Shown here one piece after another: positions 8,486 to 61,290 of a stretch of 64,000 nucleotides of DNA. The translations under genes and the position numbers were made by a program. The notes under the pieces were generated by a model. It made no database searches. It saw nothing but the letters and a program-made list of their open reading frames with translations, and was not told the origin of the DNA. Origin of the DNA: Candidatus Eiseniibacteriota bacterium (GTDB lineage Bacteria; Eisenbacteria; RBG-16-71-46; SZUA-252); the NCBI GenBank assembly GCA_035716085.1, contig DASTKC010000169.1, forward strand, positions 11,162-75,161, read 5' to 3'. Positions within the stretch are counted from its first letter, which is position 1. Each line of letters opens with the position of its first letter.

Positions 8486-10879
8486 ATGATTCGCCGGGTG
8501 CTTCCGCTCCTGATCGCGTGCTCCATCGGTGTGCCCTCGGGTCGCGCCGCGGCTCAGATGGTCCGAGCCGATTTTCCGGTGACGGACGGCCCTGTCTACG
8601 TCACGGCGCTCTCGGGAAACACGCTCTACCTGGCCGGCGCGTTCACGCGCGTCGGGACGGCGCTCGGCAGCGCAGTCCCGGTCGATTCCGGCAGCGGCGC
8701 GGCGCTCCCCAACTTCCCCAAGTTCGACGGACCGGTGCACGCCATCCTCGCGGACGGCGCGGGCGGGTGGTACGTCGGCGGCGAGTTCACCAAGGCCGGC
8801 GGCGTGTCGCGCGCCAACCTGGCGCGCGTACTCTCGAACCTCACGGTCGCGTCCTGGAATCCGGGAGCCGATGGTGCTGTTCGCGCGCTCGCGCTGAGCG
8901 GCACCACGGTGTATGTCGGCGGTGACTTCTCCAACGTGGCGGGCCAGGGTCGAAGCCGGATCGCCGCGGTGGATGCATCCACGGGAGCCTTGAGCAGCTG
9001 GAATCCGAGCGCCATCGGCACGGCGGTCCGGACGCTCGCGGTGAGCGGCGCGACGGTCTATGCCGGCGGCGATTTCAGCACTATCGGTGGGCAGTCGCGC
9101 GCCAACATCGCGGCGCTGAGCACCGCCACCGGTCTGGCCATGGCGTGGAATCCCAGCGCGAGCACCGTCGTGGACGTCATCGTCGTGAACGGCCCCACGG
9201 TCTATGCCGGGGGTCTCTTCACGACCATCGGCGGACAGACGCGGCGTCGCATCGCCGCGCTCAACGCCTCGGACGGGCTGGCCACGAGCTGGAACCCCAA
9301 CGTGACGATCGGCGAGGTTTGCGCGATCGCGGTGAGCGGCTCCACGGTCTACGCGGGTGGGAGCTTCAGCACGATCGGCGGGCAATCGCGCCAGAACCTG
9401 GCGGCGCTGAACGCGTCCGACGGCCTCGCGACGTCGCTGATCGCCACGACGAACGGCATCGTTCGCGTGCTTCAGATCCAAGGCCCGAAGCTCTTCGTGG
9501 GCGGGGAGTTCAACTCGTTCCGCTCGGAGGAGCGGCGATACCTGGCGGCTCTCGACACGGGCACGGGTCTGACGTTGCCGTGGAATCCGGCAGCGAACAA
9601 TCCCGTGCACGCGATCGCGGTGAATGGAGCCTCCGTGTGCGTCGGCGGACTCTTCACGACGCTCGGGGGCCAGATCCGAAATCGCCTGGCCGCGGTCGAC
9701 GCCGGCACCGGAGCCTTGCTGCCGTGGAATCCCGACAGCGACTCGGAGGTCTACGCTCTTGTCGTGAGCGGAGGCACGGTCTACGTCGGAGGCTACTTCG
9801 CATCGATCGGCGGTCAGCTCCGAAGCTTCATCGCGGCCGTCGATGCGGTCACCGGCGTGCCGACCGCGTGGGACCCGAACTCGAACGGGCAGATTCTCAG
9901 CCTGGCCGTCGCGAACGGCGTGGTCTACGTCGGCGGCAGCTACACGTCGATCGGAGGCGCCGCGCGCAATTCCCTGGCGGCGCTCGACCCCGCCACGGGC
10001 CTCGCCACGGCCTGGAATCCCGGCGCCAACGATTGGGTGATGTCGCTCCTTCCGGGAACGGGCGTCATCTATGCCGGCGGTTATTTCACGTCGATCGGAG
10101 GGCAGTCTCGCTCCTACATCGCGGCCCTGAGCACCTCGACCGGCCTGGCGACGAGCTGGAATCCAGCGGCAAGCGCCCATGTGGAAGCGCTCGCCATGGG
10201 CACCTCGGTCGTCTACGCCGGGGGAGCCTTCACGACGATCGGAGGACAGCCGCGGAACCGGCTGGCCGCGGTCGCGACGGGGACGGGACTCGCCACCTCC
10301 TGGAATCCCAATGCGGACGACATCGTCTACTCCATGGCCGTCAACGGGAGCACGATGTACGTGGGCGGGAGCTTCACGACCATGGGAGTGTCCGGGCGAA
10401 GCCGCGTGGCGGCCGTCGATATCGCGAGCGGTGCCACGACCTCGTGGAATCCCTCGGCGGACGGCCCGGTGTACTCGATCGCCGCCACGGGCAGCCGGGT
10501 CTACCTGGGCGGTGAGTTCCTCGAAGTCGGAGGACTGCCGCAGAGCGGCGTCGCGAGCATCTTCCCGAACATCACCGCCGTCATCGAAGCCCCGAGCGCC
10601 GTCGAGACCGTGCTCGGTCCGCCTTCACCGAACCCGTTCGTCCAATCGACCTCGATTCGGCTCTCGCTCCAGAAGGATGCGGTCGTCACACTCCGCGTCT
10701 TCGACGTCCACGGCCGGCAGGTCGCCGTGCTGGCCGACGGCAGCTACCCCGCTGGGACGCATGTGTTTGGGTGGGACGGGAGGACCCGGGCCGGCCAGGC
10801 TGCGATGAGCGGCGTCTACTTCTGCGAGCTCAGGACCGCGACCGCTTCCCTCAAGCGAAAGCTCGTCCTCGTTCGCTAG
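8486..10879 (+). CDS. Large secreted repeat protein (about 15 tandem ~47-aa beta-propeller-like repeats) with FlgD-Ig/T9SS-type C-terminal domain
   Basis: Signal peptide. Repeat unit tVYaGGxFttIGGqsRxxIAAldasTGlatsWNP recurs across about 1.9 kb. C-terminus …PNPF…RVFDVHGRQVAVL…SGVYFCEL…KLVLVR matches the T9SS/FlgD-Ig sorting-domain pattern. Confidence 0.7.
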   Translation: MIRRVLPLLIACSIGVPSGRAAAQMVRADFPVTDGPVYVTALSGNTLYLAGAFTRVGTALGSAVPVDSGSGAALPNFPKFDGPVHAILADGAGGWYVGGEFTKAGGVSRANLARVLSNLTVASWNPGADGAVRALALSGTTVYVGGDFSNVAGQGRSRIAAVDASTGALSSWNPSAIGTAVRTLAVSGATVYAGGDFSTIGGQSRANIAALSTATGLAMAWNPSASTVVDVIVVNGPTVYAGGLFTTIGGQTRRRIAALNASDGLATSWNPNVTIGEVCAIAVSGSTVYAGGSFSTIGGQSRQNLAALNASDGLATSLIATTNGIVRVLQIQGPKLFVGGEFNSFRSEERRYLAALDTGTGLTLPWNPAANNPVHAIAVNGASVCVGGLFTTLGGQIRNRLAAVDAGTGALLPWNPDSDSEVYALVVSGGTVYVGGYFASIGGQLRSFIAAVDAVTGVPTAWDPNSNGQILSLAVANGVVYVGGSYTSIGGAARNSLAALDPATGLATAWNPGANDWVMSLLPGTGVIYAGGYFTSIGGQSRSYIAALSTSTGLATSWNPAASAHVEALAMGTSVVYAGGAFTTIGGQPRNRLAAVATGTGLATSWNPNADDIVYSMAVNGSTMYVGGSFTTMGVSGRSRVAAVDIASGATTSWNPSADGPVYSIAATGSRVYLGGEFLEVGGLPQSGVASIFPNITAVIEAPSAVETVLGPPSPNPFVQSTSIRLSLQKDAVVTLRVFDVHGRQVAVLADGSYPAGTHVFGWDGRTRAGQAAMSGVYFCELRTATASLKRKLVLVR

Positions 10880-10885
10880 CGCGGC

Positions 10886-11372
10886 TCAAGGCGTTCGTAA
10901 GATTGTCGAGTCCGCGATCGCGACGAGCCTGTGGATGCGCCAGGACTTGTCGGACGCCTGCTCCGCCAGCAGCGTGTACCGCCCCGACTCCACCTTCGGT
11001 TTCCCCTCCTCCGTGAATTCCTCCTGGAACGTCCCGCTCTGCGCCGCGAGCCCGCCCACGACCTTCATGTCCTCCGGCACCACGCGGAAATTCGTCACGT
11101 CGACGCTCGCGTAGAGGGACGAGAGGAACTCCTGAACGGCCTGGCGGCCGTTGGCGGTGGCCGCGTTCGAGTAAACGACCGAGGCGTCCTCGGTGAAGAT
11201 GCTCTCGAACAGGATCGGGTCGCGCCGGTCCGCCGCTTCGGCGTAGTGGATCCAGAGCGTGTCGATGGCGGCCTTGGCGTTGGCCGCCTGGGAGGCGGTA
11301 TCGAGGTCGGATGTGGCGGAGCACGAAGCCAGGGCGACGAGCAGAGCAACCAGGCCGAGCAGGGTCCGCATA
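10886..11372 (-). CDS. Lipoprotein with NTF2/SnoaL-like (DUF4440-type) domain
   Basis: GGAGGAG RBS. Signal peptide MRTLLGLVALLVALASCSA. About 140-aa alpha+beta domain resembling SnoaL-like proteins (weak, by eye). Confidence 0.45.
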
Positions 11373-28926: not shown

Positions 28927-29410
28927 TCCAGCGCACGTCCCCCGACTTGAGCCGCCGCTCCCGGTAGCCCACCGCTTCGAGGAATCGCTCCCCGTCGTCG
29001 AGCCCCATCGGGACCTCCGCCGTGATCGACTGCGCCGCGTGCTCCTCGGCGAGGAACGCTTCCACCATCTCGAGCGCGGCGCGGCCGTATCCATGGCCCC
29101 GCTCCGCCTGCGAGAGCACGAGGCCGCGCAGCACGGACGGCACCTCGTCGGAGCCGACCTCGACTTCGATCGTCCCGATCAGCGCCTTCGTGTCCGTGCG
29201 CCGGATGGCGAAGTAGTAGCGGCTGTCGTCGGCGATCGCCTCTTCATACATCTCTTCCACGGTATTCGGATCGAAGTCCGAGGTGCCGCTCAAGGCCTCG
29301 AAGTAGTCTGGTGCGTCGAGGTAGACCTTCCAGATGGTGGGCAGATGCTCCGGTCCCGGCACCTCCAGCGTGACCAGGGGACCGTCGAGACGGGTGGTGG
29401 ATTCGCTCAT
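28907..29410 (-). CDS. GNAT family N-acetyltransferase
   Basis: About 167 aa. GHGYGRAALE motif-A-like segment. ATGA-type overlap with the upstream protease gene. Confidence 0.6.
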   Translation of the reverse strand: MSESTTRLDGPLVTLEVPGPEHLPTIWKVYLDAPDYFEALSGTSDFDPNTVEEMYEEAIADDSRYYFAIRRTDTKALIGTIEVEVGSDEVPSVLRGLVLSQAERGHGYGRAALEMVEAFLAEEHAAQSITAEVPMGLDDGERFLEAVGYRERRLKSGDVRWIKRLEA

Positions 29411-32331
29411 CGTAGGAGAACGGCCTTTTGCGTGCGCACCCGGTGCCCGGACCGTAGCTGGATGAAGTAGACGCCGGTCCCGACCGGATTCCCCCGGTCG
29501 TCGGTGCCGTCCCACGTGAACGGCGAAGTACCCGCGCGGCCGGACAGGTCAGCGAGGGTGCGCACGAGCGACCCGTCGGCACGATAGACCCGTACCATAA
29601 AGCGGCCGTCCTGGTCCAGGGACACCGGGAACGAAGCGGCGCGCGCGAACGGATTGGGCTGCACGCGGCCGATCGCGAACACGCGCGGCGCGCCGCCAGG
29701 GCCCACGCCTGCCGTCACCGCCGCGTTCACGGGGCCCGCCGTGCTCGACGGCTCACCGTCGCGTGACACCGTGAGCCAGTAGTCGTAGTCCACGCCCGCG
29801 GTCACGTGTTCGTCGACATAGGTGCCGCTCCGGGACTCCCAAGGAAGAATCGCGACTGTCTTCCGGCCGTCGTCCGCGCTCGCCCGCTCGATTTGAACGG
29901 TCGAGCCCGTATTCTCGGACAGATTCCATTCGAGCCGCACGCCCGGCCGATCCAGGAGCGCGATCGCGTTGAAGCTGTTGATCGCGATCGCCGTCGCGGC
30001 GCAGTCGTCCGTGCCGGCCACCTGCACGTCGTCGATCCACCAGCCCAGACCTTCGTTCGGGGGGACGGACCGGAAGTGGAACGCGAACTGGACGGGACCG
30101 CTCAGACCGTCGAGCGGGAAGACCGCTTCGGCGAACGTTGCCTGCGTGCCGGTCCAGCGGAAGCCGTTCGAGTAGCCGCCCACCGGGACGATCGTCGTCC
30201 ATGTCTCCCCAGCGTCGACGGATACCTCCACGTTGAGGCCGTCCACGCCGGGCTCGGTCGAGTACCGCTGCCAGAAGCGGAGCGTGTCGGCGGGACCGGC
30301 CAGCCAGACGGGCTGGCTCACGAGGCGCGCGTCCTCAGCCGGTGCGTATGTGTCGAGGGTGCCCGGCTTTCCGAGACGCCACGCCCACGTGCCCTTCGGC
30401 GTGTGGTTGATGCCGGCCTCGCGATGCCACTCGTTCACGCCGTCGCAGCCGAGCGGCACCGAGATCCAGCGGCGGATCGTGCCCTCGAAGGAATCGCAGA
30501 TCCCCGTCTTCGCGCCGACCAGGACCTGCACGCTGTCGCTGTCGACGAGGCCCGCGGACGCATGGACTCCGTGCGACACGCTCACGCCCCGCGGGTCCGG
30601 AGTGGGAAGGATCGTGGCCGTGATGCTGGAGCCCAGGCTGGTCGAGCTCGCGGCGATCGACCCGTACGTGATCGTGTCCGTGTCCACGCTCATGAAGGCG
30701 GGCTCGGGCCGGATCTTCGCGCCGAGGGATCCGGTGGCCGTGGGGCCGATGTTCAGGAGGGGGAAGTTGAGATGCACGACCTCGCCCGGCTCGGCGCGGC
30801 CGTTTCCGTTGTTGGGCGTGCCCAAAAGGGGAGCGTCGTCGACGACGATGGGCAGACGCCGCACGTCCACGCCGGTCACGAAGAAGCTCGCCATCACGTC
30901 CCCTCCGGCCTCGGCGATGTTCCGGATCGCGACCTGGCTCGGTACGTGGAAGCAGGAGGTCGCGCTGCTCGGACACGAGTTGCCGTTGAACGCGGTGGTG
31001 CCGAGCGGGCCCGGCCACGGATCGTAGCGATCGCCTCGATTGCCGTTCACCGAGGTGGAGACGCCGCAGACCTCCTTCGTGCCGAGCGCGCCCGCCGGTA
31101 GGTCGAGGTTCTGGTTTCCGGGGTGCCCTCCCTGCTCGGGCCCTCCCGCTTCGACCACGTCGACCATCTTGTGGGCGGGGTCGTCGTTGTTGGAGCGGTT
31201 CTCGTCGATGTGGTAGATGACGAGGCCGTGCGCGGGGCCGAGTCCCGCCTCGACCGAGGAGCGGACGAGCGTGGAATCGAAGCCGACCGGCTGCCGGTTC
31301 TCCACGAGGAAGTATTCGTTCGACTCCTGGCCGTTCGTCCACAAGCGGAAGACCTGGCCCGAGCTTTCGACGGGCGGGATGGTCACGCCCGATGAGTCCT
31401 GCGTCACCCAGGTCGGCTGGACCCAGCCGAGCCTCGCCTTGCACCACGCCGACATGTGCGCCGGCGTCGTGCCGGGCGCATGCGCGGGGGAGTGCGTGTA
31501 GAGCCCGTACGCCATCAGATCCCACTCGCCGTCGCCCGAGCTCTGGTTGTCGTCCAGGTCGTAGAGGTCAGGAAGCCCCAGGATGTGGCCGAACTCGTGG
31601 CAGAAGACGCCGATCGAGATGAGATCGCCCGCGCTGTAGTACGCCGAGTTGAGCCCCCACTCCTCGGGCTCCGTCGTGAATGCGTAGAGCGTGGTCCCGT
31701 CCAGCGTGACTCCCCCGGGGAGGTTCCACTTGAGCGACCAGATCTGGTCGACGCTCCCCGTCTCCTCGCCCCCTGGCCCCGCGTGCACGACGAACACGCC
31801 GTCCACGAAGCCGTCGCCGTCGCCGTCGAACTGGGACCAGTCGATGTCGGGGTCCGCGAGAAGCATCGCGTCCTGCGCCATCCCCTGCGCGTTCGTGGGA
31901 AAGGCGCCGAATCCCGACTGGCTGTTCACGTAGTACGAGTAGGGGTGGGGCGCCGTGTACCAGCGCGTCACCACGCCCTGCACGTCGAGCTGATTGCGCG
32001 AGACTTCGCGATAGTAGTCGCGGAAGCTTCCGGTCGGACGCGTGCCGACGCTGAAGAGGAGGCTGTCGTACGCCTCGGGCGGGTGCGCCAGCGTGTCCGC
32101 CGCGAGGTCGGGGAACTGGAGCAGGACGACGACCACTCGCTTGATGCCGGTCGTGGTCGCGCGCGCTTCCGCGAGATCCACCTCGGGAGCGCGATGAAGC
32201 TGTGAGTAGAGCGCGCGGGCGCGGGACACCGTGCGGGCGCCCGGCCCTGTGTTGTCGAGAGGAGGTGCGGCGTGAGCGGCGGTCGCGCCCAGGGCCAGGC
32301 ACACTCCAAGGAGCAGCCCTTGAAGGCGCAA
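29407..32331 (-). CDS. Secreted M6-like (InhA/immune inhibitor A-type) zinc metalloprotease with FlgD-Ig/T9SS-type C-terminal domain
   Basis: Signal peptide MRLQGLLLGVCLALGATAAHA. HEXXHXXGXXD = HEFGHILGLPD. C-terminus PNPFARAASFPVSL…RVYRADGSLVRTL…GVYFIQL…KAVLLR. Confidence 0.7.
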   Translation of the reverse strand: MRLQGLLLGVCLALGATAAHAAPPLDNTGPGARTVSRARALYSQLHRAPEVDLAEARATTTGIKRVVVVLLQFPDLAADTLAHPPEAYDSLLFSVGTRPTGSFRDYYREVSRNQLDVQGVVTRWYTAPHPYSYYVNSQSGFGAFPTNAQGMAQDAMLLADPDIDWSQFDGDGDGFVDGVFVVHAGPGGEETGSVDQIWSLKWNLPGGVTLDGTTLYAFTTEPEEWGLNSAYYSAGDLISIGVFCHEFGHILGLPDLYDLDDNQSSGDGEWDLMAYGLYTHSPAHAPGTTPAHMSAWCKARLGWVQPTWVTQDSSGVTIPPVESSGQVFRLWTNGQESNEYFLVENRQPVGFDSTLVRSSVEAGLGPAHGLVIYHIDENRSNNDDPAHKMVDVVEAGGPEQGGHPGNQNLDLPAGALGTKEVCGVSTSVNGNRGDRYDPWPGPLGTTAFNGNSCPSSATSCFHVPSQVAIRNIAEAGGDVMASFFVTGVDVRRLPIVVDDAPLLGTPNNGNGRAEPGEVVHLNFPLLNIGPTATGSLGAKIRPEPAFMSVDTDTITYGSIAASSTSLGSSITATILPTPDPRGVSVSHGVHASAGLVDSDSVQVLVGAKTGICDSFEGTIRRWISVPLGCDGVNEWHREAGINHTPKGTWAWRLGKPGTLDTYAPAEDARLVSQPVWLAGPADTLRFWQRYSTEPGVDGLNVEVSVDAGETWTTIVPVGGYSNGFRWTGTQATFAEAVFPLDGLSGPVQFAFHFRSVPPNEGLGWWIDDVQVAGTDDCAATAIAINSFNAIALLDRPGVRLEWNLSENTGSTVQIERASADDGRKTVAILPWESRSGTYVDEHVTAGVDYDYWLTVSRDGEPSSTAGPVNAAVTAGVGPGGAPRVFAIGRVQPNPFARAASFPVSLDQDGRFMVRVYRADGSLVRTLADLSGRAGTSPFTWDGTDDRGNPVGTGVYFIQLRSGHRVRTQKAVLLR

Positions 32332-39610: not shown

Positions 39611-40702
39611 TCAACGCGCGGCGGCGGGCTGCGCCGCTTGAGCCGCGGCCATCCCGCTCTCGAAGAGCTTCGGGTTGGTGGACCGTGAGAGCGCGGCCTG
39701 GGCCGTGATCTTGCCCGAGGTCACGAGATCCTTGAGCGCCTGGTCCAGCATGACCATGCCGTCCTTGGCTCCCACCTGCATCATGCTCGGGATCTGGGCG
39801 GTCTTGCCCTCCCGGATCAGGTTCCGGAGCGCGGGCACGCCGACCAGGATCTCGTGCGCGGCGACGCGCCCCTTGCCGTCGGCGGTCGGGATCAGGGTCT
39901 GCGCGACGACTCCCTCGAGCGACTCGCTCAGCATCGTTCGGATCTGTGCCTGGCGGTCGGCGGGGAAGATGTCGACGAGGCGGTCGATGGTCTTGGGCGC
40001 CGAGTTCGTGTGGAGCGTGCCGAACACGAGATGTCCCGTCTCCGCGGCGGTGATCGCGAGCGACGTCGTCTCGAGATCGCGGAGCTCGCCCACGAGGAGA
40101 ATATCCGGATCCTCGCGGAGCGCGCCCCGAAGCGCGGCCGCGAAGCTCGTCGTGTGCGCGCCCACCTCGCGCTGGTTGATGAGGCATCGCTTCCGCTCGT
40201 GAACGAACTCGAGCGGGTCCTCGATCGTGATGATGTGCTTGGGGAACGTGGCGTTCACGTAGTCGATCATCGCCGCGAGCGTCGTCGACTTGCCGCTCCC
40301 GGTCGGTCCCGTCACGAGCACGAGTCCGCGCTCCTTCGACGCGAGATCGCGGAGGATGGCTGGCCCCTTCAGCTCCTCGAGGGTCGGGACCTTCGTCGCG
40401 ATGACCCGGAACACGGCGCCGACGCCGCGGCGCTGCTCGAAATAGTTCGCCCGGAAGCGGGAGAGCCCCGGGATTTCGATGGCGAAGTCGAGCTCGTGCC
40501 GCTCTTCGAAGTCGGCCTTCTGGGCCGGGGTCAGCAAGGAGTAGAGCGCGTCCCGCGTCTCCTTCGGATCGAGCGGCGGCGTCTGGAACGGAACGATGTC
40601 GCCTCGCATGCGCGCCATGGGCGGCGACGCCGTCGAGATGTGAAGGTCGGACGCCTTCGCCTCGACGATCGCCTTGAGGAGCGCCTGGATGTCGACGGGC
40701 AT
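39611..40702 (-). CDS. pilT: Type IV pilus retraction ATPase PilT
   Basis: Walker A GPTGSGKSTT, Asp box, Walker B ILLVGELRD, His box GHLVFGTLHTNSA. Confidence 0.85.
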   Translation of the reverse strand: MPVDIQALLKAIVEAKASDLHISTASPPMARMRGDIVPFQTPPLDPKETRDALYSLLTPAQKADFEERHELDFAIEIPGLSRFRANYFEQRRGVGAVFRVIATKVPTLEELKGPAILRDLASKERGLVLVTGPTGSGKSTTLAAMIDYVNATFPKHIITIEDPLEFVHERKRCLINQREVGAHTTSFAAALRGALREDPDILLVGELRDLETTSLAITAAETGHLVFGTLHTNSAPKTIDRLVDIFPADRQAQIRTMLSESLEGVVAQTLIPTADGKGRVAAHEILVGVPALRNLIREGKTAQIPSMMQVGAKDGMVMLDQALKDLVTSGKITAQAALSRSTNPKLFESGMAAAQAAQPAAAR

Positions 40703-42189
40703 CAGCGTCCCTGACCTTTCCAGAGGCGCTCGCGGTCCTCGTCGCTCAGGATCGTGACTTCGAGAATGCCGGCCCGGTGCTCGGCCTCTTCCGGCTCCGC
40801 CCACGCCGAGGAGCCTTCATGGCGCGCGGTCGGCAGCGCGATCATCGCGAACGGACGATCGCGCAGCACGGCACGCCCGTTCGGGCTGTCTGCGAGGCAC
40901 TGGAGGAGGGCTTTCCCGTCCAGCCATCCCGTGCGGGCGAAGACGAGCCGCCCCACCGCGGCTCCGTCCAGGAGCTCCGCCACGGAATCGCCGTGAAGGA
41001 GGTCGTCCAGCACGACGATGTCCGCTCCGAGACCGACCGAGGCACGACGCCAGTTCACGCTGGAGGGGTCTCCGGCCTGGAACTGGATCCGGGTCACTCC
41101 CGCGGGATAGGGCGCCGTGGGCCACGGCTCGAAGGCGACGACGCGGCGCTCGGGCTTCATGGCGAGAGACGCGAGCGAGGCGAGCACGGTCGAGCCGCCC
41201 GCCCGCGGCGGGCCGTACACGATCACGAGCCCCTCCGGGCCCTCGACGAATTCGCGAATCTCGCCCTCGCCGAGCGGAGAGAGCCCGAGCAGCGAGAGAT
41301 CGGGCGCCTCGGCTCGATCGGGGTGGAGTCGAAGCACCGTCGTCACGCCGGAAGCGCCGCGAGCGTGGCAGACGCCGACGTGCACGCGATCGCCGCTCAG
41401 GTCGGCCATCACGTGCCCCTGGACTGCGAGCTCACCCATCTCCAGATCCGGCGCGCCCAGGTGCGCGAGGCGCGTGCGCAGGTAGAGCATGGTCTCCGGC
41501 TGCTCGACCCCGCGGGGCTCGAGTCCCTTGTCGGTCCGGTAGTGCACCGCGATGCCGCCCTTTTCCGGCACGAAGTGGATCTCGGACGCACGGTCGTTGC
41601 GCGCGGTATAGACGTGATAGAGGAGGAAGGTCGATCCAGAGCGCTCCCAGACCACCCGGTGGCGCGGCTCGCCCCCGGCCGCGGCCGCTATCGTGGCCGC
41701 CTCGGCCGCGCTCGCGCGCGCGGCGACCTTGTCCCGCGATGGCCGCTCCGGCCCGTAGACGTTGTCGAGCACCCGGCGGATCGACCCCTGGCAGCCGATG
41801 ACGAGCGAGACGGGCATCCCCGCCGCCTGCTCGATCTCCCTCACGGCCTCGGAGTCGGTGGGATCGGACATCGCGATGACCATCTCCTCCGGGTTCTGGA
41901 AGAGGGGCATCGCCTGGATGCGACGAAGGAGCGATTCGGGGAAGCGCCGGACGAGATCCATGTCGGCGGCGCCGGACGCGAGGTCCACATACGGAATGCC
42001 GAGCTGCTTGGAGAGGGCCCAGCCGATGTTCTCCTCGGTCGTGAAGCCCATCTCGACGAGGCTCTCGCCGATCAGGCGGCCGGTCTCGAGCTGCTGCTGG
42101 AACGCGGCATCCACCTGTTCCGGAGTCACGATCCCGCCGTCGATCAGGATCGACGCCAGGGTCCGCTTCGTCTGACCGGTCTCGCTCAC
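40702..42189 (-). CDS. MshEN-domain (c-di-GMP receptor type) protein fused to degenerate GspE/PilB-like ATPase domain
   Basis: N-terminus has two MshEN motifs (RTLASILIDGGIVTPEQVDAAFQQQ; RLIGESLVEMGFTTEENIGWALSKQ). C-terminal P-loop region degenerate (GPPRAGGST instead of GPTGSGKT; Walker B/His box not conserved). Start uncertain (GTG 42189, or ATG 42249/42288). ATGA overlap with pilT. Confidence 0.6.
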   Translation of the reverse strand: MSETGQTKRTLASILIDGGIVTPEQVDAAFQQQLETGRLIGESLVEMGFTTEENIGWALSKQLGIPYVDLASGAADMDLVRRFPESLLRRIQAMPLFQNPEEMVIAMSDPTDSEAVREIEQAAGMPVSLVIGCQGSIRRVLDNVYGPERPSRDKVAARASAAEAATIAAAAGGEPRHRVVWERSGSTFLLYHVYTARNDRASEIHFVPEKGGIAVHYRTDKGLEPRGVEQPETMLYLRTRLAHLGAPDLEMGELAVQGHVMADLSGDRVHVGVCHARGASGVTTVLRLHPDRAEAPDLSLLGLSPLGEGEIREFVEGPEGLVIVYGPPRAGGSTVLASLASLAMKPERRVVAFEPWPTAPYPAGVTRIQFQAGDPSSVNWRRASVGLGADIVVLDDLLHGDSVAELLDGAAVGRLVFARTGWLDGKALLQCLADSPNGRAVLRDRPFAMIALPTARHEGSSAWAEPEEAEHRAGILEVTILSDEDRERLWKGQGR

Positions 42190-42485
42190 GAGGCACCTCT
42201 GCGTCCGGGGGTTGGGAATCGATTCGGCCCTGGGCGAATCGCAAGGCATGTGCCATGCGTACCCCACGGCATGGCGCGCCAGGGCCATGGCCGCCGCCTT
42301 GCTCGATTCGGAGGGAACGCGGTGCGAAATGGCGAGTTGAGAAGCGATGAGCGGTGGGTCGCAGCCCCTGGCGGGGACCTCTACGCGGCTCCCGGGGCGG
42401 CGCAATGCTTGCCCCTTGCTCGGCCAGCGGTTATTTTCTGCGCGGTTTCCATGCAGCGCATCGACACCTCATCGGACGGGAGCCC

Positions 42486-44150
42486 ATGGCGCACGCACAA
42501 ATGAAACGGAAATCCGCCGACGCCACTGGAAAGAAACGGAAGTCCGGCTCCACCGAGCCCGAAGCCGCCGCTCCGTCGAAGAAGCAGCCCAAGATCGTGC
42601 GGCTCACCGCCACCGATCTCGCGGAGAAGCAGCGCGAGATCTCGGTCAGCGAGTTCTTCACCAAGAACCGCCATCTCCTCGGATTCGACAGCCCCGCGAA
42701 GGCCTTGTTGACGACGGTGAAGGAAGCCGTCGACAACGCGCTCGACGCGTGCGAGGAGGCGGGCATCCTTCCCGACCTCCTGCTCGAGATCCAGGAGATC
42801 TCCGAGACCCGTTACCGTATCGCGGTCCAGGACAACGGCCCCGGCATCGTGAAGGCTCAAATCCCCAAGATCTTTGGCCAGCTCCTCTCTGGATCGAAGT
42901 TCCACAGGCTGCGCCAGTCGCGCGGCCAGCAGGGGATCGGCATCTCCGCGGCCGGGATGTACGGCCAGCTCACGACCGGCAAGCCGATCACCGTGATCTC
43001 GCGGATCGGCGCCGGGAAGCCCGCGCACAAGTTCGACATCCAGATCGACACGCGGCAGAACCGGCCGGTCGTCGTGGCGGATCACGAAGTCGAGTGGACG
43101 CCGCAGCACGGCACGCGCGTGGAGCTCGAGATCGAGGCCACCTACAAGAAAGGGCGCCACTCGGTCGACGGCTACGTCGAGCAGACGGCGATGGCCAATC
43201 CGCACGCGCAGATCACGTACGTGGCGCCGACGGGCGAACGGACGGAGCTGCCGCGCGTCGCGAACGAGCTGCCGAAGCCCCCGCAGGAGATCAAGCCGCA
43301 CCCGCACGGCGTGGAGCTGGGCATCCTCTTGAAGATGCTCCACGACACGAAGGCCAGGAACCTCCGCGGCTTCCTGACCAGCGAGTTCTCGCGTGTGAGC
43401 GCCGCGGTGGCCGAGGAAATCGCCACCACGGCCGGCCTCTCCGGAGGCATGACCACGCAGAAGGCGGCGCGCGAGCAGGCCGAGGCGCTCTACAAGGCGA
43501 TCCAGGCCACGAAGCTCATGGCCCCACCGTCGAACGTGCTCTCGCCGATCGGCGAGGAGCTGTTGCTCGAGGGCTTGAGGAAGCAGATCGACGCCCGCTT
43601 CTACGCCGCGACCTCGCGGTCACCGTCGGTGTATCGCGGGAACCCGTTTCTCGTGGAGGCTGCCATCGCCTTCGGGGCGGAGCAGCTTCCGGCCGACGAG
43701 CCGATCACGCTGATCCGATTCGCGAACCGGGTGCCACTCCTCTACCAGCAGTCCGCCTGCGCGGTCACGAAGTCGGTGATCCAGACCAACTGGAAGTCGT
43801 ACGGCATCCAGCAGTCGCGCGGCGCGCTCCCGTCCGGCCCGATGATCATCATGGTGCACATCGCGTCCGTGTGGGTGCCGTTCACGTCGGAGTCGAAGGA
43901 AGCGGTCGCCTCGTATCCCGAGATCATGAAGGAGATCAAGCTCGCGCTTCAGGACGTCGGGCGGAAGCTCGGCATCTTCATCCGGCGCGGGATGCGGGAG
44001 GCGGACGCGGAGAAGAAGCGGTCCTATATCGAGAAGTACATCCCGCACATCGGGATCGCGCTTCAGGAAATCCTGAGCATCAGCGACAAGGAAAAGGACA
44101 AGGTCTGCGCGACCTTGAAGGACACCCTAGAGCGGAGCCGGAAGCTATGA
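42486..44150 (+). CDS. top6B: DNA topoisomerase VI subunit B (GHKL ATPase + transducer)
   Basis: Bergerat-fold motifs: N-box [10 protein letters not shown]1 DNGPGI, G2 [12 protein letters not shown]…KN…GF N-terminal signature. Lys-rich 40-aa N-terminal extension. Confidence 0.85.
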
Positions 44151-45235
44151 GCGATACCAACGTCGTTCCCAAGATCAAGAAAGAGGCGAAGGCCGTCGAG
44201 GAGTCGATCCTCAAGAAGAAGACGCCCTCGTTGAAGTTTCCCATCCGTTCGCTCGCGAACGTGAGGTATCTCGAGAAGGAAGGCTACTTCGAGATCCGCG
44301 GGAAGAAGAAGGAGCGGACGCTCACGGTCAACACCGTGAAGACGTTCGCGCAGACGTTGAGAATGATGGCCCTGTCCAAGACCTTGGTCGAGACGGACGA
44401 CATGGCGACCAAGCGAGAGGCGTACTACGTCTCCAAGAACTGGGACGACGCACGGTTCTTGGAGCAGACCGAGTCCGACACGGTGATGGACGACGTCGAG
44501 GCCTTGTTCGAGGTCAACCGCGAGCAGCTCGGATTCGTCCCCGAGGAGAAGGGGGGCGACGTCGCCGGCACCTTGGTCGTCGTGGACAAGGACCCCGATA
44601 CCGGCAAGTCGATCCGGATCGACTGCACCAAGTTCGGCTCCGGCGCGTACTCGATCCCGATTTCCGTGGAAGACTTGAAGTTCGAGACCAAGGCCAAGTT
44701 CATCCTCGTCATCGAGACCGCCGGCATGTTCCAGCGCCTCGTGAAGCACGGCTACTGGAAGAAGGCCAACTGCATCCTGGTCTCGATGGGAGGCGTGCCC
44801 ACGCGCGCCTGCCGCCGGTTCATCCGCCGGCTCGCCGACTCGATGAAGATCCCTGTCTACGTCTTCGTCGACGGCGATCCCTACGGCATCAGCAACATCT
44901 ACCGCACGTTCAAGGTGGGCTCCGGAAACGCGGCGCACATCAACGAGTTCTTCTGCGTTCCGCAGGCGAGGTTCCTCGGCATCACGCCCCAGGACATCAT
45001 CGACTACAAGCTCCCGACGCACCCCTTGAAGGACGTCGACGTGAAGCGCGCCAAGGACGCGGTCAAGAACGACCCGTTCTTCCAGCACCACAAGCCCTGG
45101 GTGAAGGCCATGGAGCAGCTCATGAGCATGGGGGTCCGCGCGGAGCAGCAGGCGCTCGCGGCCCATGGCTTGAACTACGTGATGGACACGTACCTGCCCG
45201 AGAAGATCGCGCACCCTGAGCGGTTCCTGCCGTAA
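44147..45235 (+). CDS. top6A: DNA topoisomerase VI subunit A (Spo11-like)
   Basis: CAP-domain catalytic Tyr context KREAYYVS. Toprim motifs ([10 protein letters not shown]; FVDGDPYG). ATGA overlap with top6B. Confidence 0.85.
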
Positions 45236-45274
45236 GGTCGGGAGCGGCAGCAGGCGATTTGTGAATTCATTCTC

Positions 45275-45294
45275 AACTTGCCCCGGGGCAAGTT
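45275..45294. repeat. Perfect palindrome AACTTGCCCCGGGGCAAGTT (copy 1)
   Basis: Intergenic, 12 nt upstream of the VOC gene ATG. Same 18-bp core as 59817..59834. Confidence 0.8.
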
Positions 45295-45305
45295 GACGAG
45301 GACCC

Positions 45306-45671
45306 ATGCCGATCCGCGGCGTCCATACGATGTTCTACACGTCGGAGCCCGAGGCGATGCGCGTCTTCCTGCGCGACAAGCTCGGGCTTCACGGCGTCGA
45401 CGTCGGCGGCGGCTGGCTGATCTTCGACGTCCCTGAGGCGGACATGGGCTGCCATCCCGCGGACCCGAACAGCGTCCATGGCGAGCCCTCCGGGACGAAC
45501 CACATCTCGTTCTACTGCGACGACGTGCGGAAGACGGTGGAGGAGCTGAAGGGGCGAGGCGTCGAGTTCGTGGACGGGATCGTGGATCGCGGCTACGGCC
45601 TCGTCACGCACTTCAAGGTGCCGGGTGGGTTCGAGGTCGAGCTCTACCAGCCGAAGTACGAGAAGGGTTGA
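45306..45671 (+). CDS. VOC/glyoxalase family protein
   Basis: 121 aa, single betaalphabetabetabeta-type module pattern (…VHTMFYTSEPEAMRVFLRDKLGL…). Confidence 0.65.
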   Translation: MPIRGVHTMFYTSEPEAMRVFLRDKLGLHGVDVGGGWLIFDVPEADMGCHPADPNSVHGEPSGTNHISFYCDDVRKTVEELKGRGVEFVDGIVDRGYGLVTHFKVPGGFEVELYQPKYEKG

Positions 45672-45683
45672 TCGCTCGAAGAA

Positions 45684-46430
45684 CTACGGGTGGGCCAGGA
45701 AGAAGTAGTTCAGCCGCCTTTCGAACTGCTCGATGAACTGATCGCGGGTCAGCGGCGAACGGCCAGCGAGCCAGTCCGGTAAGAGCGAGATGCGGAGCGG
45801 AGCCTCACCCAGGACATCGAATATCTCGCCCGCTCCGCTACCGAAATGATCCGCCCCGCCTAGGCCGCATTCGAAGAGCACGTGCGGTCGTTGGCGTCGC
45901 AGCATCTGAAGCCCTCCCCGGAACACTCCGAGCTCGGCTCCTTCCACGTCCACCTTCACCAGTTTCACAGGCACGTCCCGGGGCAAAACGCGGTCGAGCG
46001 TCTCGACCGTGACATCGATCTGGCGCCGGGTTTCGTTCCCCAGGTCCCGTTCCCGCGCGCTCAGCCCGCTCAACGCCGGATGCTCCACCATGCAATGGAA
46101 CACGGCCGAGCCAGGTTCGGAGCCGATCGCGTACGGATACACATTCATTCCGGGGAATCGCGCCTGAAGCTTCGCGAACTGATCCGGATTCGGCTCGAAC
46201 GCGAAGTGCTTCACCCCTGGAGCGAGTCGCATCATGTGCCGCAGGTAGGCGCCCTCGAACGAGCCGACATCGACGCCGATCCCTCCGCGCCGCAACACCC
46301 GCCGCATGACAGCGATTGTCTGGGAGTCGTAGAGGCTGCCCTTGTGCCCGGTCAGCTTGGCGTGGACGTAACGGAAGGGCTCTTCCCAACGGGTACCGAC
46401 GAGGGTTCGCTTGGCGAGGTCGGCGAGCAT
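45684..46430 (-). CDS. FkbM-family methyltransferase
   Basis: SAM motif-I region GIGVDVGSFEGAY and FkbM-like length/pattern. Confidence 0.7.
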   Translation of the reverse strand: MLADLAKRTLVGTRWEEPFRYVHAKLTGHKGSLYDSQTIAVMRRVLRRGGIGVDVGSFEGAYLRHMMRLAPGVKHFAFEPNPDQFAKLQARFPGMNVYPYAIGSEPGSAVFHCMVEHPALSGLSARERDLGNETRRQIDVTVETLDRVLPRDVPVKLVKVDVEGAELGVFRGGLQMLRRQRPHVLFECGLGGADHFGSGAGEIFDVLGEAPLRISLLPDWLAGRSPLTRDQFIEQFERRLNYFFLAHP

Positions 46431-46502
46431 TCGGGAAGTGTACCCGTGCCTGGCGGCGGCTTCCTAGGGGTCACCCTCGCTTGGCGCCGACGCGCCACCG
46501 GG

Positions 46503-47216
46503 TCACGTCACCGCAGGCTCCGCCTCCGTCTCCGCATGCTCCGCCGGGTCCCGGGCCCCCATGAAGGGCAGCCACAGCACCATCCCCAGCTCGCCGAAAT
46601 AGAGGGGCGACATCACCCGCGATACCGCCGCGATGTGCTCGGGGAAGGCGATGATCGTCACCGAAGTGACCACGTACCCCACGCCCGAGGCGAAGAGCAG
46701 GTATCCGAGGATCTTGGGGAAATAGCCCGACTTGATCGTCAGGATGCCAAACGGGAAGAGCCAGAGTCCCCAGAAGATGGTGAGGATGCGGGCGAGGTTG
46801 TTGCCCCAGAGGATCGAGCCCATGACCAGCGCGTCGAGCTGGGGCTTGGTGAACGCGGAGAGATAGCTCTCGCCGCTCAGGAGGATCAGCGGCGTCATCC
46901 GGTTCGCGATCGTCACGAGCTCCGCTGCGATCGCGACTCCTACGAGCCCCACCATCAATCGCGCGAGCGCGCGGTCGACGTCACGGAACAGCCGGTACAG
47001 CGTCAGCGCCACGACGACGAACAAGATCTGGGATACGAGCGAGATCAGGATGGTCAGGCGGTAGAGCGAGGCCCCGTCGGCAATGTTGCGGGCCGTCGTC
47101 GCAGCGTCGTCGGAGAGGAACCGGGAGGGGACGTACATGTAGCTGAAGATCATCAGGGCGGACATCACGACGTACAGGAATCCGGCGAGTCGGGCGGTCG
47201 ACTTGGGTGAGTCCAT
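46503..47216 (-). CDS. DUF4386-like polytopic membrane protein
   Basis: Six hydrophobic helices, …AGFLYVVMSALMIFSYMYV… pattern. Confidence 0.45.
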   Translation of the reverse strand: MDSPKSTARLAGFLYVVMSALMIFSYMYVPSRFLSDDAATTARNIADGASLYRLTILISLVSQILFVVVALTLYRLFRDVDRALARLMVGLVGVAIAAELVTIANRMTPLILLSGESYLSAFTKPQLDALVMGSILWGNNLARILTIFWGLWLFPFGILTIKSGYFPKILGYLLFASGVGYVVTSVTIIAFPEHIAAVSRVMSPLYFGELGMVLWLPFMGARDPAEHAETEAEPAVT

Positions 47217-47261: not shown

Positions 47262-47684
47262 CTAGAAATCCGCCGCCTTCGTGGAGTCCAGCGGCGGCCG
47301 CCAGGTGCTATCCACCGGCGTCCCCCTCTCCTCGATCCAGATGTAGACGTCGGCTTCCTCCTCGTCCATGTGCAGGCGTTGCCCCTTCGGGAGCCGCTGG
47401 ATCTTGGACCACAGCTCGTCGATGTTGATGCGGTAGTCGTGAGCGAGGCCGATCTCGGACTTGAGGTTGAAGGCGTGCATATAGTCGAGCGCCTTCTTGG
47501 GCACGGTCACCGCCACGGTGGCCAGGTCCTTCCCGGGCTCCCAGACCTCGACTCGTACCACGGTGTCCCTGCCGTACCACCAGGGCTTGGGGTTCGGGAT
47601 GTCGAGGCGGGCCGTCCAGGCGTAGCCGATCCCGAGACAGACGAGGAGGCCCAAGGCCAGGGCTATCCAGAACTTGCGATTCAT
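47262..47684 (-). CDS. Hypothetical secreted/periplasmic protein
   Basis: N-terminal signal/anchor MNRKFWIALALGLLVCLGIGYAW. No family recognised. Confidence 0.4.
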   Translation of the reverse strand: MNRKFWIALALGLLVCLGIGYAWTARLDIPNPKPWWYGRDTVVRVEVWEPGKDLATVAVTVPKKALDYMHAFNLKSEIGLAHDYRINIDELWSKIQRLPKGQRLHMDEEEADVYIWIEERGTPVDSTWRPPLDSTKAADF

Positions 47685-58811: not shown

Positions 58812-59807
58812 ATGAGCCCCGAGCCGAACGACATCCGGATGGACGACCTCCGTCCCTGGCGCCCGCCCGCCCGCGGGGAGGCGCTCGCGCATTACCCGGC
58901 CACGGACAAGGTCCTGCCGCTCGGGGAAGCGCTCGCTCGGTTCGTCCCTGACGGCTCGACCGTCGCCCTCGGCACGTGCCTCGAGCAAATGATCCCCTTC
59001 GCCGCCGCGCACGAGCTGATCCGTCGCGGCGCCCGCGACCTCACGCTCGTCGGCCCCGTCTCCGACATCGCCTTCGACCAGCTCATCGGCGCCGGGTGCG
59101 CGCGCCGCGTGGCGGCCGCGTGGGTCGGGAACGTGATGATGGGGATCGCCTACTCGTTCCGGCGCGCTGTGGAACGGGGAGCGCTCGAGGTGGTCGAGTT
59201 CTCCAACTTCACGCTGGCGCAGGCGCTCCACGCGGCCGCGATCGGCGCTCCGTTCATCCCTACCCGCTCGACGCTGGGCACCGATCTCATCGCGCGGAAT
59301 CCCTGGCTCCAACCGATCGAGGATCCGCTCGGCGGCGGGCCATTGCTCGCCGTGAAGCCGCTCCATCCGGACGTGACGATCGTCCATGTGCAGCGCTCCG
59401 ATCCGCACGGGAACGCGCAGATGTGGGGAAGCCTGGGTATCACGCTGGACGCGGCCCGCGCCGCGCGCGCGGTGATCGTGACGGCGGAGGAGATCGTCGC
59501 GCCCGAGCAGATCCGCCGCGATCCCAATCGCGTGGTGATTCCCGGGCTCGTCGTCGCGGCCGTGTGCGAGTCGCGGTGGGGCGCGCATCCGTCGCCGGTG
59601 CAGGGCTACTACCGGCGCGATCACGAGGCCTACTCCGACTACCACGCCCGCACGAAGACCGAGGAAGGCTACGCCGCGTGGCGAGGGGAGTGGGTGGACG
59701 CCGTGCGCGATCTCGCCGGCTACCTCGCGCGGCTCGGAAACGAGCGCGTGGCCTCGCTGATTCCGCTGGAGCACCACTACGCGGAGCCCGTCGACTATGG
59801 GTACTGA
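58812..59807 (+). CDS. CoA-transferase family protein (glutaconate/3-oxoacid CoA-transferase subunit A-like)
   Basis: …GSTVALGTCLEQMIP…LTLVGPVSD… resembles CoA_trans A subunits. No B subunit adjacent. Confidence 0.65.
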   Translation: MSPEPNDIRMDDLRPWRPPARGEALAHYPATDKVLPLGEALARFVPDGSTVALGTCLEQMIPFAAAHELIRRGARDLTLVGPVSDIAFDQLIGAGCARRVAAAWVGNVMMGIAYSFRRAVERGALEVVEFSNFTLAQALHAAAIGAPFIPTRSTLGTDLIARNPWLQPIEDPLGGGPLLAVKPLHPDVTIVHVQRSDPHGNAQMWGSLGITLDAARAARAVIVTAEEIVAPEQIRRDPNRVVIPGLVVAAVCESRWGAHPSPVQGYYRRDHEAYSDYHARTKTEEGYAAWRGEWVDAVRDLAGYLARLGNERVASLIPLEHHYAEPVDYGY

Positions 59808-61290
59808 CGCGAGGTCACTTGCCCCGGGGCAAGTCGTCGAGCCCGTTGTGCGCCCGCTACCTCCCGAGTGGACACCGCTCCGGGCACTCGAGATCGTGGG
59901 CCGTGACCCCTACACGCTCTTCTTCGAGAGCGGCGGGCCAGCCGGTGAGGCGAGCGAGTGGACGATCCTCGCCTTCGATCCCCTGTACCGGCTCGTGCTG
60001 CGCGATGGACGGCTTCGACGGATGGACCCCGGCGGCTCGGATCACGAGCTCGACGGGCATCCGCTCGACGCGCTAGCGCGTGCCTGGCCGGCGCCTGTTC
60101 ACGCGGCTGAGGGCCAGGCCGCCGAGATCCCGTTCATCTCCGGCCTCGCGGGCTACCTCTCCTACGACCTCAAGGATTGGATCGAGAGATATCCATCCCA
60201 CGCGGTGCGCGATCTCGACTTCCCGGGCCTCTCGCTCCGGTTCCACGACGTGGTGTGGGCCTGGAAGCGGAGCACCGGCGAGGGTTGGGTCGTTTCGACC
60301 GGGTTGGCGGGAGACGAAGAGGGCCGGACCGCGAATCTCGCATTTCGCGCCGGCGCCCGTCTGGCCGAGCAGTGGATCTTGTTCAAAAAGGAAATGGGGC
60401 GCACACCCGAGCGGACTTCGGTTCCGACGCGGCCGACCACGGTCACGTCCACGTTCACCCGGCTCACGTACGAATCCATGGTCGCGCGAGCACTCGAGTA
60501 CATCGCGGCTGGTGACATCTACCAGGTGAACCTGGCACAGCGATTCCGCGTCGAGCCCGTGCCGCCGGCCCTGGATGTCTACCGCGCGCTGCGCACGATC
60601 GCCCCCGCGCCATTCCTGGCTTTTGCTTCGCTTCCCGACGGCGGCATTGCCAGCTCCTCACCGGAGCGCTTCTTCCGCATCAAAGGCCGCACGATCGAGA
60701 CCTGGCCGATCAAGGGCACGCGCCCACGAGGCCGGACGCCGGAGGAGGATGCACGCCTCCTGGCGGAGCTTCGCGCCAGCGCCAAAGACCACGCCGAGAA
60801 CGTGATGATCGTGGACCTGGAGCGAAACGACCTCGGCCGGGTGTGCGAGACAGGCTCGGTCCGCGTCCCGGCGCTCTGCGACGTCGTGTCGCACTCGAAC
60901 GTGCATCACCTCGAGTCTCGGGTGGAGGGCACGTTGCGTGAGGATGCTCACCCCGTGGACGTGCTGCGCGCGCTCATGCCCGGCGGCTCGATCACGGGCG
61001 CTCCCAAGATCCGCGCGGTCGAGATCATCGACGAGCTCGAGCCCGTGCGGCGAGCCGTATACACGGGAGCGATCGGATACTGGGACGTCCGCGGCGGGTG
61101 CGACTGGAACATCGCCATCCGCACCATCTCGGTCGTGGATGACGTCGCCTACTTCCACGCCGGGGGCGGCGTGGTCGCGGACTCGACCCCGGCCGGCGAA
61201 TATGAAGAGACGCTCGTCAAGGCGAGCGGCATGATGCGCGCGCTCGGCGTCGACGCGCACGCCTTGGACGAGGCGCTCGCGCGGCCGTGA
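59797..61290 (+). CDS. Chorismate-binding enzyme (aminodeoxychorismate synthase/anthranilate synthase component I)
   Basis: C-terminal chorismate-binding domain (…SSPERFFRI…GAPK…, …[17 protein letters not shown]…). Start ATG 59797 or GTG 59848. Confidence 0.8.
59817..59834. repeat. Perfect palindrome ACTTGCCCCGGGGCAAGT (copy 2)
   Basis: Identical 18-bp core to 45277..45294. Lies between CoA-transferase stop (59807) and an alternative GTG start (59848) of the chorismate-binding enzyme gene. Confidence 0.8.

Follow-up and report, generated by a model that had tools for sequence, protein, structure and literature searches.

Why should an uncultured bacterium keep a topoisomerase VI (Topo VI), an enzyme of archaeal origin, and why should one of its two subunits begin with a lysine-rich tail that its archaeal counterparts do not have? 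The question is raised by a 64,000-nucleotide stretch of DNA, here called the window, from Candidatus Eiseniibacteriota (Candidatus Eisenbacteria in the labels of its relatives), which covers positions 11,162 to 75,161 of the forward strand of contig DASTKC010000169.1 (assembly GCA_035716085.1) and carries two adjoining genes, top6B and top6A, for subunits B and A of Topo VI. As an enzyme, the product of this operon is of a known type, found here in a phylum that published lists of the system do not yet include; what is new is the tail, a stretch of about 36 polycationic residues at the N-terminus of Top6B that, judged from sequence comparisons, is translated and belongs to most bacterial Top6B proteins.

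The assignment of both subunits to Topo VI draws on family profiles and on solved structures. Top6B matches the Pfam families HATPase_c (4.6e-10) and Topo-VIb_trans (2e-58, profile positions 1-159 of 159) and scores far above the cutoffs of two subunit B models, namely NF003218, the NCBIfam equivalog (704 bits against 274), and TIGR01052 (550 against 381). Its closest solved relative is chain 2q2e_B of Methanosarcina mazei (E=3e-153), with residues 42-533 of the query aligned to 6-497 of the chain. Top6A matches TP6A_N (9.4e-16), Topo_VI_alpha and TOP6A-Spo11_Toprim (1.1e-60, profile positions 1-170 of 170), and over residues 60-362 it is closest to 1d3y of Methanocaldococcus jannaschii (E=7e-112). 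Top6A remains below the cutoffs of all six NCBIfam sub-models, the best being NF003337 with 486 bits against 675; these are narrow sub-family models, all Pfam domain cutoffs were passed, and the scores are read as the mark of a divergent bacterial sub-family, not of non-membership. NF003337 and the other best models for Top6A are described as 'DNA topoisomerase IV subunit A', even though the protein they represent is Topo VI-A, a naming that could spread mis-annotation as Topo IV/ParC.

The residues on which catalysis would depend are likewise in place. In Top6B these include the N-box EAVDNALDA (residues 80-88, with E80 and N84), the G1 motif DNGPGI (116-121, with D116), the G2 motif GQQGIGIS (147-154) and a switch lysine, K471 in SESKEAV, which aligns with the lysine of ...SAGKESIA in Saccharolobus shibatae, a residue we take to be K427, in contact with the gamma-phosphate of ATP. 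The H2TH span is covered by an unbroken alignment to M. mazei Top6B across residues 250-345, a WKSY stalk motif lies at 436-439, and KKGRH (221-225) occupies the position of the KGRR loop. Roles in DNA sensing are documented for the KGRR loop and WKxY in M. mazei Topo VI, where such elements proved essential (PMC5922973). In Top6A, KREAYY (89-94) provides the context of the catalytic tyrosine, REAYY (90-94) being identical to REAYY of M. jannaschii in the alignment, and the Toprim domain has E190 and DGDPYG (242-247) with the metal-binding residues D242 and D244. By its sequence, then, the operon encodes a complete Topo VI, with catalytic and DNA-sensing motifs all intact. Such an operon had been proposed in the original prediction, a reading of the letters alone, and the Pfam matches, the NCBIfam equivalog for the B subunit and the closest PDB relatives all point to Topo VI; the reading frames and the ATGA overlap agree exactly with its description, and each of the motifs that it quoted (N-box, DNGPGI, GQQGIGIS, KREAYY, the Toprim glutamate and DGDPYG) was located in the translations. 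Profile hidden Markov models matched Topo VI families and not the alternative GHKL or Toprim families, and the assignment of both subunits rules out a MutL or gyrase fragment. Topo VIII was ruled out as well, the subunits being separate and full-length and chromosomal synteny being kept. Among related loci, top6A lies 3' of top6B in 61 of 80, and the junction between the two genes is an overlap or a gap of at most 15 nucleotides.

Against this canonical background the tail stands apart. Profile and PDB alignments start only at Top6B residue 42-47, so that some 36-40 N-terminal residues are extra. Residues 1-36 contain eight lysines and two arginines, three aspartates or glutamates in all, and no leucine, phenylalanine, isoleucine, valine, tryptophan or tyrosine; lysine makes up 22% of the tail compared with 2.9% of the proteins of 39 other window genes, in a genome of 67% GC to which lysine codons come at a cost. 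The sequence GGGAG(G/n)CC-ATG is kept in the window and in seven orthologous Eisenbacteria loci (eight examined), and the sequence further upstream is not conserved. Because the Shine-Dalgarno element and the ATG are conserved in these eight loci, the Lys/Arg-rich tail is, on comparative grounds, translated, and since conservation does not extend beyond them, both an upstream GTG and an internal start are ruled out. The upstream candidate, a GTG at 42354 that would open a 598-residue reading frame, was rejected, as the peptide that it would add is unconserved. All 119 close homologues whose N-terminus is complete have an in-frame tail, which is 18-77 residues long and drifts in sequence but keeps a make-up of 29% K+R and 51% A/P/S/G/T, with a median net charge of +9. 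Within Eisenbacteria the N-terminal octamer MAQAQLKK / MAQALKK is kept, which goes beyond mere composition.

The tail is not a peculiarity of one phylum. Measured over 68 bacterial loci, the longest extension that stays in frame has a median of 73 residues, the last 40 of which have a median of 26% K+R and a net charge of +7. Four of the five loci from DPANN archaea have an extension of 0-19 residues, and the fifth (L063) has an acidic maximal open reading frame (ORF) of 52 residues. A similar division is seen among representatives of 50%-identity clusters, where the median extension is 2-3 residues for the 81 that share less than 53% identity with the query, and half of the 26 closer ones have 50 residues or more. 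Matches from M. mazei, S. shibatae and haloarchaea all begin at query residue 42 or later, and archaeal relatives and solved structures begin 0-20 residues before the core. A basic N-terminal extension is thus, as far as these sequences tell, a feature of most bacterial Top6B proteins in at least eight phyla and not of archaeal ones. The original prediction had singled out the Lys/Arg-rich extension as unusual and not part of canonical Top6B; it is indeed present and non-canonical in comparison with archaeal Top6B, but it is clade-wide in bacteria and not peculiar to this gene. No published account of a Top6B N-terminal extension, of a motif in the tail or of a link between Topo VI and the sliding clamp was found in the literature outside subscription journals, and the tail is apparently an undescribed variant feature of bacterial Top6B.

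In most bacterial lineages outside the window's sublineage the tail contains a short motif in addition to basic residues. An expectation-maximisation (EM) motif search of 65 bacterial tails returned the consensus QPRLF at width 5 and AQPSLFEE at width 8, with log-likelihood ratios of 153/177/215 compared with means of 65/79/114 (maxima 83-122) for composition-preserving shuffles. Simple patterns are enriched to a similar effect over 500 shuffles: [LM]F[DEG] occurs in 18 of the 65 tails (0.6 expected), Q..[LMIV][FL] in 15 (1.1 expected) and Q..LF in nine (0.1 expected). Individual instances include QLDLFG, QMDLFG, QGDLFG, QMRLFG, QLGLF, QLVLGL, QMSLSF and QLSLL, and motif-bearing N-termini are exemplified by loci L030 (MKGGQMDLFGG), L028 (...TQLDLFGA) and L008 (MANRQLELIARK). 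The motif is mostly found 4-12 residues in from the predicted start, with the basic stretch after it. Many Planctomycetota tails have xTLFD[LE][DE], without the glutamine, basal Eisenbacteria have QLELI, QLELL or QLEVLF, and some Eisenbacteria have QLKLKL. QLGLF, QLVLGL and QMSLF are presumably the clamp-binding motifs of Escherichia coli Pol II, Pol IV and MutS. With its published consensus, QL(S/D)LF, for which variability is acknowledged (PMC9690074), the motif that binds the beta sliding clamp is one that the tails of these other lineages resemble, and in the family at large, the window protein excepted, it may have that function. In the window's own tail no clamp-type motif was found, and as L, F, I, V, W and Y are all missing from the tail, the hydrophobic anchor of such a motif is impossible there.

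It may be that Top6B gained a clamp-binding [Q/T]xxLF motif together with a polycationic linker on its adoption by bacteria, at the base of a clade that includes Planctomycetota, Acidobacteriota, Myxococcota, Gemmatimonadota and basal Eisenbacteria, so as to tether the decatenase to the replisome or to new DNA, with the window's lineage derived and left with the basic tail only; the chance of this, judged from the sequences, falls somewhat short of even. Unlikely, though deserving of a hearing, is the explanation that the tail is mainly a flexible linker for replisome tethering, made of a beta-clamp motif and a basic spacer gained when the archaeal enzyme was domesticated, and that the window's residual MAHAQMKR might still bind DnaN or another partner. 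The motif was recovered de novo, far above shuffles, near the start and ahead of the basic stretch, and the forms QLDLF, QMDLF, QLGLF, QLVLGL and QMSLSF fit the published consensus (PMC9690074). The octamer kept within Eisenbacteria speaks in the same direction, MAHAQMKR being comparable to MAQAQLKK, QLELI and QLKLKL of relatives, and there is a precedent in NucS/EndoMS, an archaeal-type enzyme in which the PCNA-interacting (PIP) box was swapped for a beta-clamp motif (PMC8228993). Set against this are the lack of any hydrophobic anchor in the window tail, the presence of QLxL[I/L] or QLxLxL in only about 12 of the 119 close Eisenbacteria homologues, and the many Planctomycetota instances without a glutamine.

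The reading favoured here, and the one that is probably correct, is that the operon specifies an A2B2 decatenase/relaxase of the canonical kind, with a polycationic tail that tethers it to DNA and a probable Topo IV role, in a sublineage where the clamp-like motif would have decayed and only the basic part would remain. By the established mechanism of the family, the A2B2 enzyme would work as a two-gate machine in which the G-segment is bound and bent on Top6A with the help of H2TH and stalk elements, the T-segment is captured between the GHKL domains upon ATP-driven dimerisation, and cleavage with a 2-nucleotide stagger, through the tyrosine and the Toprim residues, is followed by passage of the T-segment. 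The N-terminus of Top6B would lie at the strap that caps the ATP gate, placing two flexible tails, each with a charge of about +7 to +9, at the point of T-segment entry, where they could add non-specific DNA affinity and so favour either a longer residence on DNA or the nucleoid or the capture of the T-segment. In vitro the M. mazei enzyme acts distributively (PMC5922973), and a precedent for such a tail is given by the lysine repeats of Streptomyces TopA, which stabilise the enzyme-DNA complex and confer processivity (PMC5714199). As for its role in the cell, Topo VI-bearing bacteria outside Pseudomonadota and Terrabacteria are without Topo IV (ParC/ParE) (PMC11302465). By analogy with these other non-proteobacterial holders, Topo VI is probably a substitute for Topo IV in the present host as well, and would be its main decatenase if Topo IV is absent. 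None of the approximately 50 ORFs of the 64-kb window scanned with Pfam is a gyrase or Topo IV gene.

Several points weigh against this reading. An AlphaFold2 (AF2) model of Top6B, made from an 18-sequence alignment and used only to call the structure of residues 1-40, gives these residues no secondary structure and a predicted local distance difference test (pLDDT) score of 31-42, but the model as a whole is poor (mean pLDDT 56, predicted template modelling score, pTM, 0.40), so that the description of the tail as disordered derives mainly from its composition; the same is true of its DNA binding, for which composition is the sole basis. Four of the 68 bacterial loci have an extension of less than 20 residues (one of them at a contig end), which makes the tail other than obligatory, and the start codons of distant loci are crude, being those of the maximal ORF. 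In addition, bacterial Topo VI is biochemically uncharacterised, and its role has been called puzzling (PMC11302465).

Two further explanations were weighed. According to one, with very little chance of being right, the tail stems from erroneous gene calling in a high-GC genome, where spurious long upstream ORFs are typical (the frame here is open to the GTG at 42354), and translation really begins close to where canonical Top6B does, GTG 42594-42596 (V38, IVRLTA...) being one candidate, as the lower values of the tail than of the rest of the gene for GC content at third codon positions (GC3, 0.76) and for an index like the codon adaptation index (CAI-like, 0.46) might suggest; yet GGGAG is properly spaced from a conserved ATG in eight species with conservation ending upstream, frame and basic composition are held in 119 homologues despite indels, eight AT-rich lysine codons stand among 36 codons of a 67% GC genome, and the internal GTG has no Shine-Dalgarno-like sequence before it.

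The other, equally improbable, is that the operon was acquired horizontally in recent times, belongs to an archaeal fragment binned by mistake, results from chimeric assembly, or encodes a mobile or defence-related type IIB relative (Topo VIII, mini-A, or a Toprim nuclease of the MksG/Wadjet type). The archaeal origin of the family lends itself to such a view, as do the grouping of the bacterial clade with DPANN archaea (84% bootstrap) and a dip in GC at 44-45 kb (0.60), with top6A, at 0.61 overall, being the minimum of the window. Only codon positions 1 and 2 show the dip, which arises there because the protein is conserved and Lys-rich, and recent horizontal transfer was rejected as its cause. 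GC3 is 0.915 in top6B and 0.939 in top6A against a background of 0.885 +/- 0.04 in the 39 other window genes, and the CAI-like index is 0.72 and 0.75, respectively, against a background mean of 0.70, in keeping with the G/C-rich third positions and resident look that had been described from the sequence. The ten-gene order HEAT-TPR-unknown-HAD-PilT-MshEN <-> Top6B-Top6A-unknown-ABC3 is common to the window and six other Eisenbacteria species, all represented by contigs of metagenome-assembled genomes (MAGs). Because both flanks are syntenic in six species, the contig is not chimeric, and the operon has been at its present position since before these species diverged. Top6A is 90-94% identical among Eisenbacteria species and the flanking proteins 50-77%, a difference that indicates strong purifying selection on the enzyme. 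Separate, full-length B and A subunits with an equivalog-level score are also at odds with Topo VIII, which is fused and plasmid-borne (PMC7671362, PMC11302465), and in PLSDB no bacterial plasmid carries a homologue, the only matches being haloarchaeal megaplasmids. Given the conserved neighbourhood and host-like codon usage, the operon is resident and vertically inherited in Candidatus Eisenbacteria.

The surroundings and the closest relatives agree with this. Neighbours identified in the window comprise GroES/GroEL, thioredoxin, HflX, a sigma-54 activator, an outer membrane protein beta-barrel, ABC transporters and a UvrD/PD-(D/E)XK helicase-nuclease, all bacterial, and Pfam thereby confirmed the pilT, groESL, trxA and hflX surroundings named in the original prediction; the contig is bacterial and, from its synteny, non-chimeric. 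The closest Top6B homologues, at 78-98% identity, come from metagenomes and from MAGs mostly labelled Candidatus Eisenbacteria by NCBI, and a scan of GTDB species genomes places Eisenbacteria loci on top at 77-85% identity. Immediately 5' of top6BA and divergently oriented, as had been noted and as the ORF map and Pfam show, lie genes for an MshEN-domain ATPase and a PilT-type ATPase, a pair that is kept in this divergent arrangement in six Eisenbacteria species. The MshEN gene probably has its real start further downstream, which would lengthen the divergent region; a sigma-70 consensus promoter scan of 42406..42485 gave no match. Coordinates are collected in Table 1.

Table 1. Positions in the window of the top6BA operon, its signals and adjacent features
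Feature	Position	Strand	Description and evidence
top6B (Topo VI subunit B, 554 aa)	42486..44150	+	GHKL ATPase, H2TH and transducer; ATG 42486, TGA 44148-44150; Pfam, NCBIfam, PDB relative
top6A (Topo VI subunit A, 362 aa)	44147..45235	+	CAP/winged-helix domain with catalytic Tyr, and Toprim; ATG 44147, stop 45233-45235; Pfam, PDB relative
ATGA start/stop overlap of top6B and top6A	44147..44150	+	Translational coupling; direct sequence reading
Shine-Dalgarno-like GGGAG	42478..42482	+	3 nt 5' of the top6B ATG; kept in orthologous Eisenbacteria loci
Coding region of the polycationic tail	42486..42596	+	Top6B residues 1-37; 5' of every profile and PDB alignment
Minimal divergent intergenic region	42406..42485	.	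Between the MshEN-ATPase/PilT operon (minus strand) and top6BA; ORF map, Pfam on neighbours
MshEN-domain protein	40702-42405	-	Partial T2SSE ATPase match, profile positions 18-177 of 370
PilT-type ATPase, full	39611-40804	-	Adjoins the MshEN gene
Perfect palindrome of 24 bp, TCAACTTGCCCCGGGGCAAGTTGA	45273..45296	.	37 nt past the top6A stop, 9 nt before the ATG of a glyoxalase-family gene

Placed in a wider setting, the operon is one of many in bacteria. Bacterial Topo VI has been published from 17 families in seven phyla, with at least two transfers from archaea inferred (Allen & Maxwell 2024, PMC11302465). Relatives of the present enzyme occur in at least 574 species among GTDB species genomes, and the best 80 GTDB loci comprise about 75 from at least eight bacterial phyla, with Eisenbacteria, Acidobacteriota, Myxococcota, Planctomycetota, Gemmatimonadota, Nitrospiraceae, Verrucomicrobia and Binatia among them, plus five from DPANN archaea. 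To call Topo VI only sporadic in bacteria, as had been done at the outset, therefore understates its distribution, and given this wide spread its presence in a bacterium is not surprising by itself. Eisenbacteria are outside the published list, although public MAG annotation already calls the genes Topo VI. In a neighbour-joining tree of Top6B cores the main Eisenbacteria clade, window included, has 100% bootstrap support; bacterial monophyly reached only 47%, and because of this value no claim is made on the number of transfers from archaea to bacteria.

Two observations on Top6B relatives came to light in the course of these comparisons. Three loci labelled Eisenbacteria (L035, L041 and L043) have a Top6B that branches far from the main clade (L001-L008), that of L041 with a long tail of GKGAK repeats, which points to mis-binning, a deep split in the phylum or a second acquisition. 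A length of 1000-1500 residues is reached by many Top6B cluster representatives (P0121, P0124, P0125, P0136, P0141, P0143 and others), whose two matched stretches are split around query residues 120-155, the GHKL G2 region; inteins have probably inserted into these proteins, including one that is closest to the bacterial clade.

Comparison with known systems helps to define what is and is not distinctive about the enzyme. With archaeal Topo VI (M. mazei 2Q2E, S. shibatae 2ZBK, M. jannaschii 1D3Y) it has in common the two-subunit architecture, the domain order, an alignment over the full core, and the N-box, G1/G2, switch lysine, WKxY, the loop at the KGRR position, catalytic tyrosine and Toprim acidic residues. 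The differences lie at the ends and in one loop: archaeal Top6B begins 4-6 residues before the aligned core, whereas the window protein has about 36 polycationic residues extra; M. mazei Top6B has a C-terminal immunoglobulin (Ig)-like domain, whereas the window protein has none and ends about 20 residues past the aligned region; and the KGRR of M. mazei is replaced by KKGRH. The lack of an Ig-like C-terminal domain is a property of bacterial Top6B (PMC11302465). Published bacterial enzymes (Anaeromyxobacter, Pirellula, Nitrospira and Bdellovibrio among the 17 families) belong to the same bacterial clade, which is nested in archaeal diversity (PMC11302465), and the affinity of the window Top6A to Methanococcales and of the Top6B clade to DPANN archaea agrees with the bacterial clusters of that survey, which does not include Eisenbacteria and mentions neither N-terminal extension, tail nor clamp motif.

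For the tail itself the nearest parallels are found in other enzymes. The lysine repeats of actinobacterial TopA (PMC5714199) are likewise a low-complexity, Lys/Ala/Pro-rich appendage of a topoisomerase, but they are C-terminal, much longer and part of a type IA enzyme, whereas the window tail is N-terminal on a type IIB enzyme; the likeness is one of analogy, with no homology. A resemblance to beta-clamp-binding proteins (Pol II, Pol IV, MutS, Hda) applies to most bacterial Top6B tails outside the window's sublineage, which carry a consensus-like terminal motif, and the clamp partners reviewed in PMC9690074 include no bacterial topoisomerase. Topo VIII/mini-A and MksG-type Toprim nucleases have Toprim/CAP and GHKL ancestry in common with the window enzyme, but they are fused or truncated, divergent in sequence and located on plasmids or in defence loci, whereas the window subunits are separate, full-length and set in a chromosomal housekeeping context.

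Downstream of the operon the conserved gene order is interrupted. The palindrome that had been reported to follow top6A is present and perfect, and its 18-bp core recurs exactly once in the window, at 59817-59834, among the opening codons of a trpE-like anthranilate synthase I gene (59797-61290), where zero recurrences are expected by chance; no copy was found in the 80 related loci. As an intrinsic terminator it was rejected, having no U-tract, no call in a consensus scan and, for the region, a folding energy no better than that of shuffles (z=-0.45). It may be an operator controlling the next gene or some other regulatory site, or else a terminator hairpin that lacks the U-tract. Between top6A and the gene at 47262-47684 lie three genes at 45306-47216, for a glyoxalase/bleomycin-resistance family protein, an FkbM-type methyltransferase and a DUF4386 protein, and this block is missing from the same position in the five syntenic Eisenbacteria loci that reach past top6A. 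The block is a lineage-specific insertion that starts right after the palindrome, which stands at its left edge. Elsewhere in the window, two large proteins of secreted type, a beta-propeller protein (8486-10879) and an M6 peptidase (29407-32331), end in FlgD Ig-like domains, which may be a C-terminal sorting or anchor domain typical of the lineage.

Taken alone, the window has a modest practical message: its Topo VI can be identified correctly and looks like an ordinary housekeeping enzyme of Eisenbacteria. With the tail, bacterial Top6B can be told from archaeal Top6B by a simple feature of the sequence. If clamp binding by the tails of other lineages proves true, theirs would be the first case of a bacterial type II topoisomerase tethered to the clamp, and a concrete, testable answer would be available to the open question of the job of bacterial Topo VI. 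A Topo VI that is vertically inherited and highly conserved across an uncultured phylum makes the role of the bacterial enzyme experimentally approachable, and the basic appendage, absent in archaea and accompanied in other lineages by a clamp-like motif, offers a further handle on that role.

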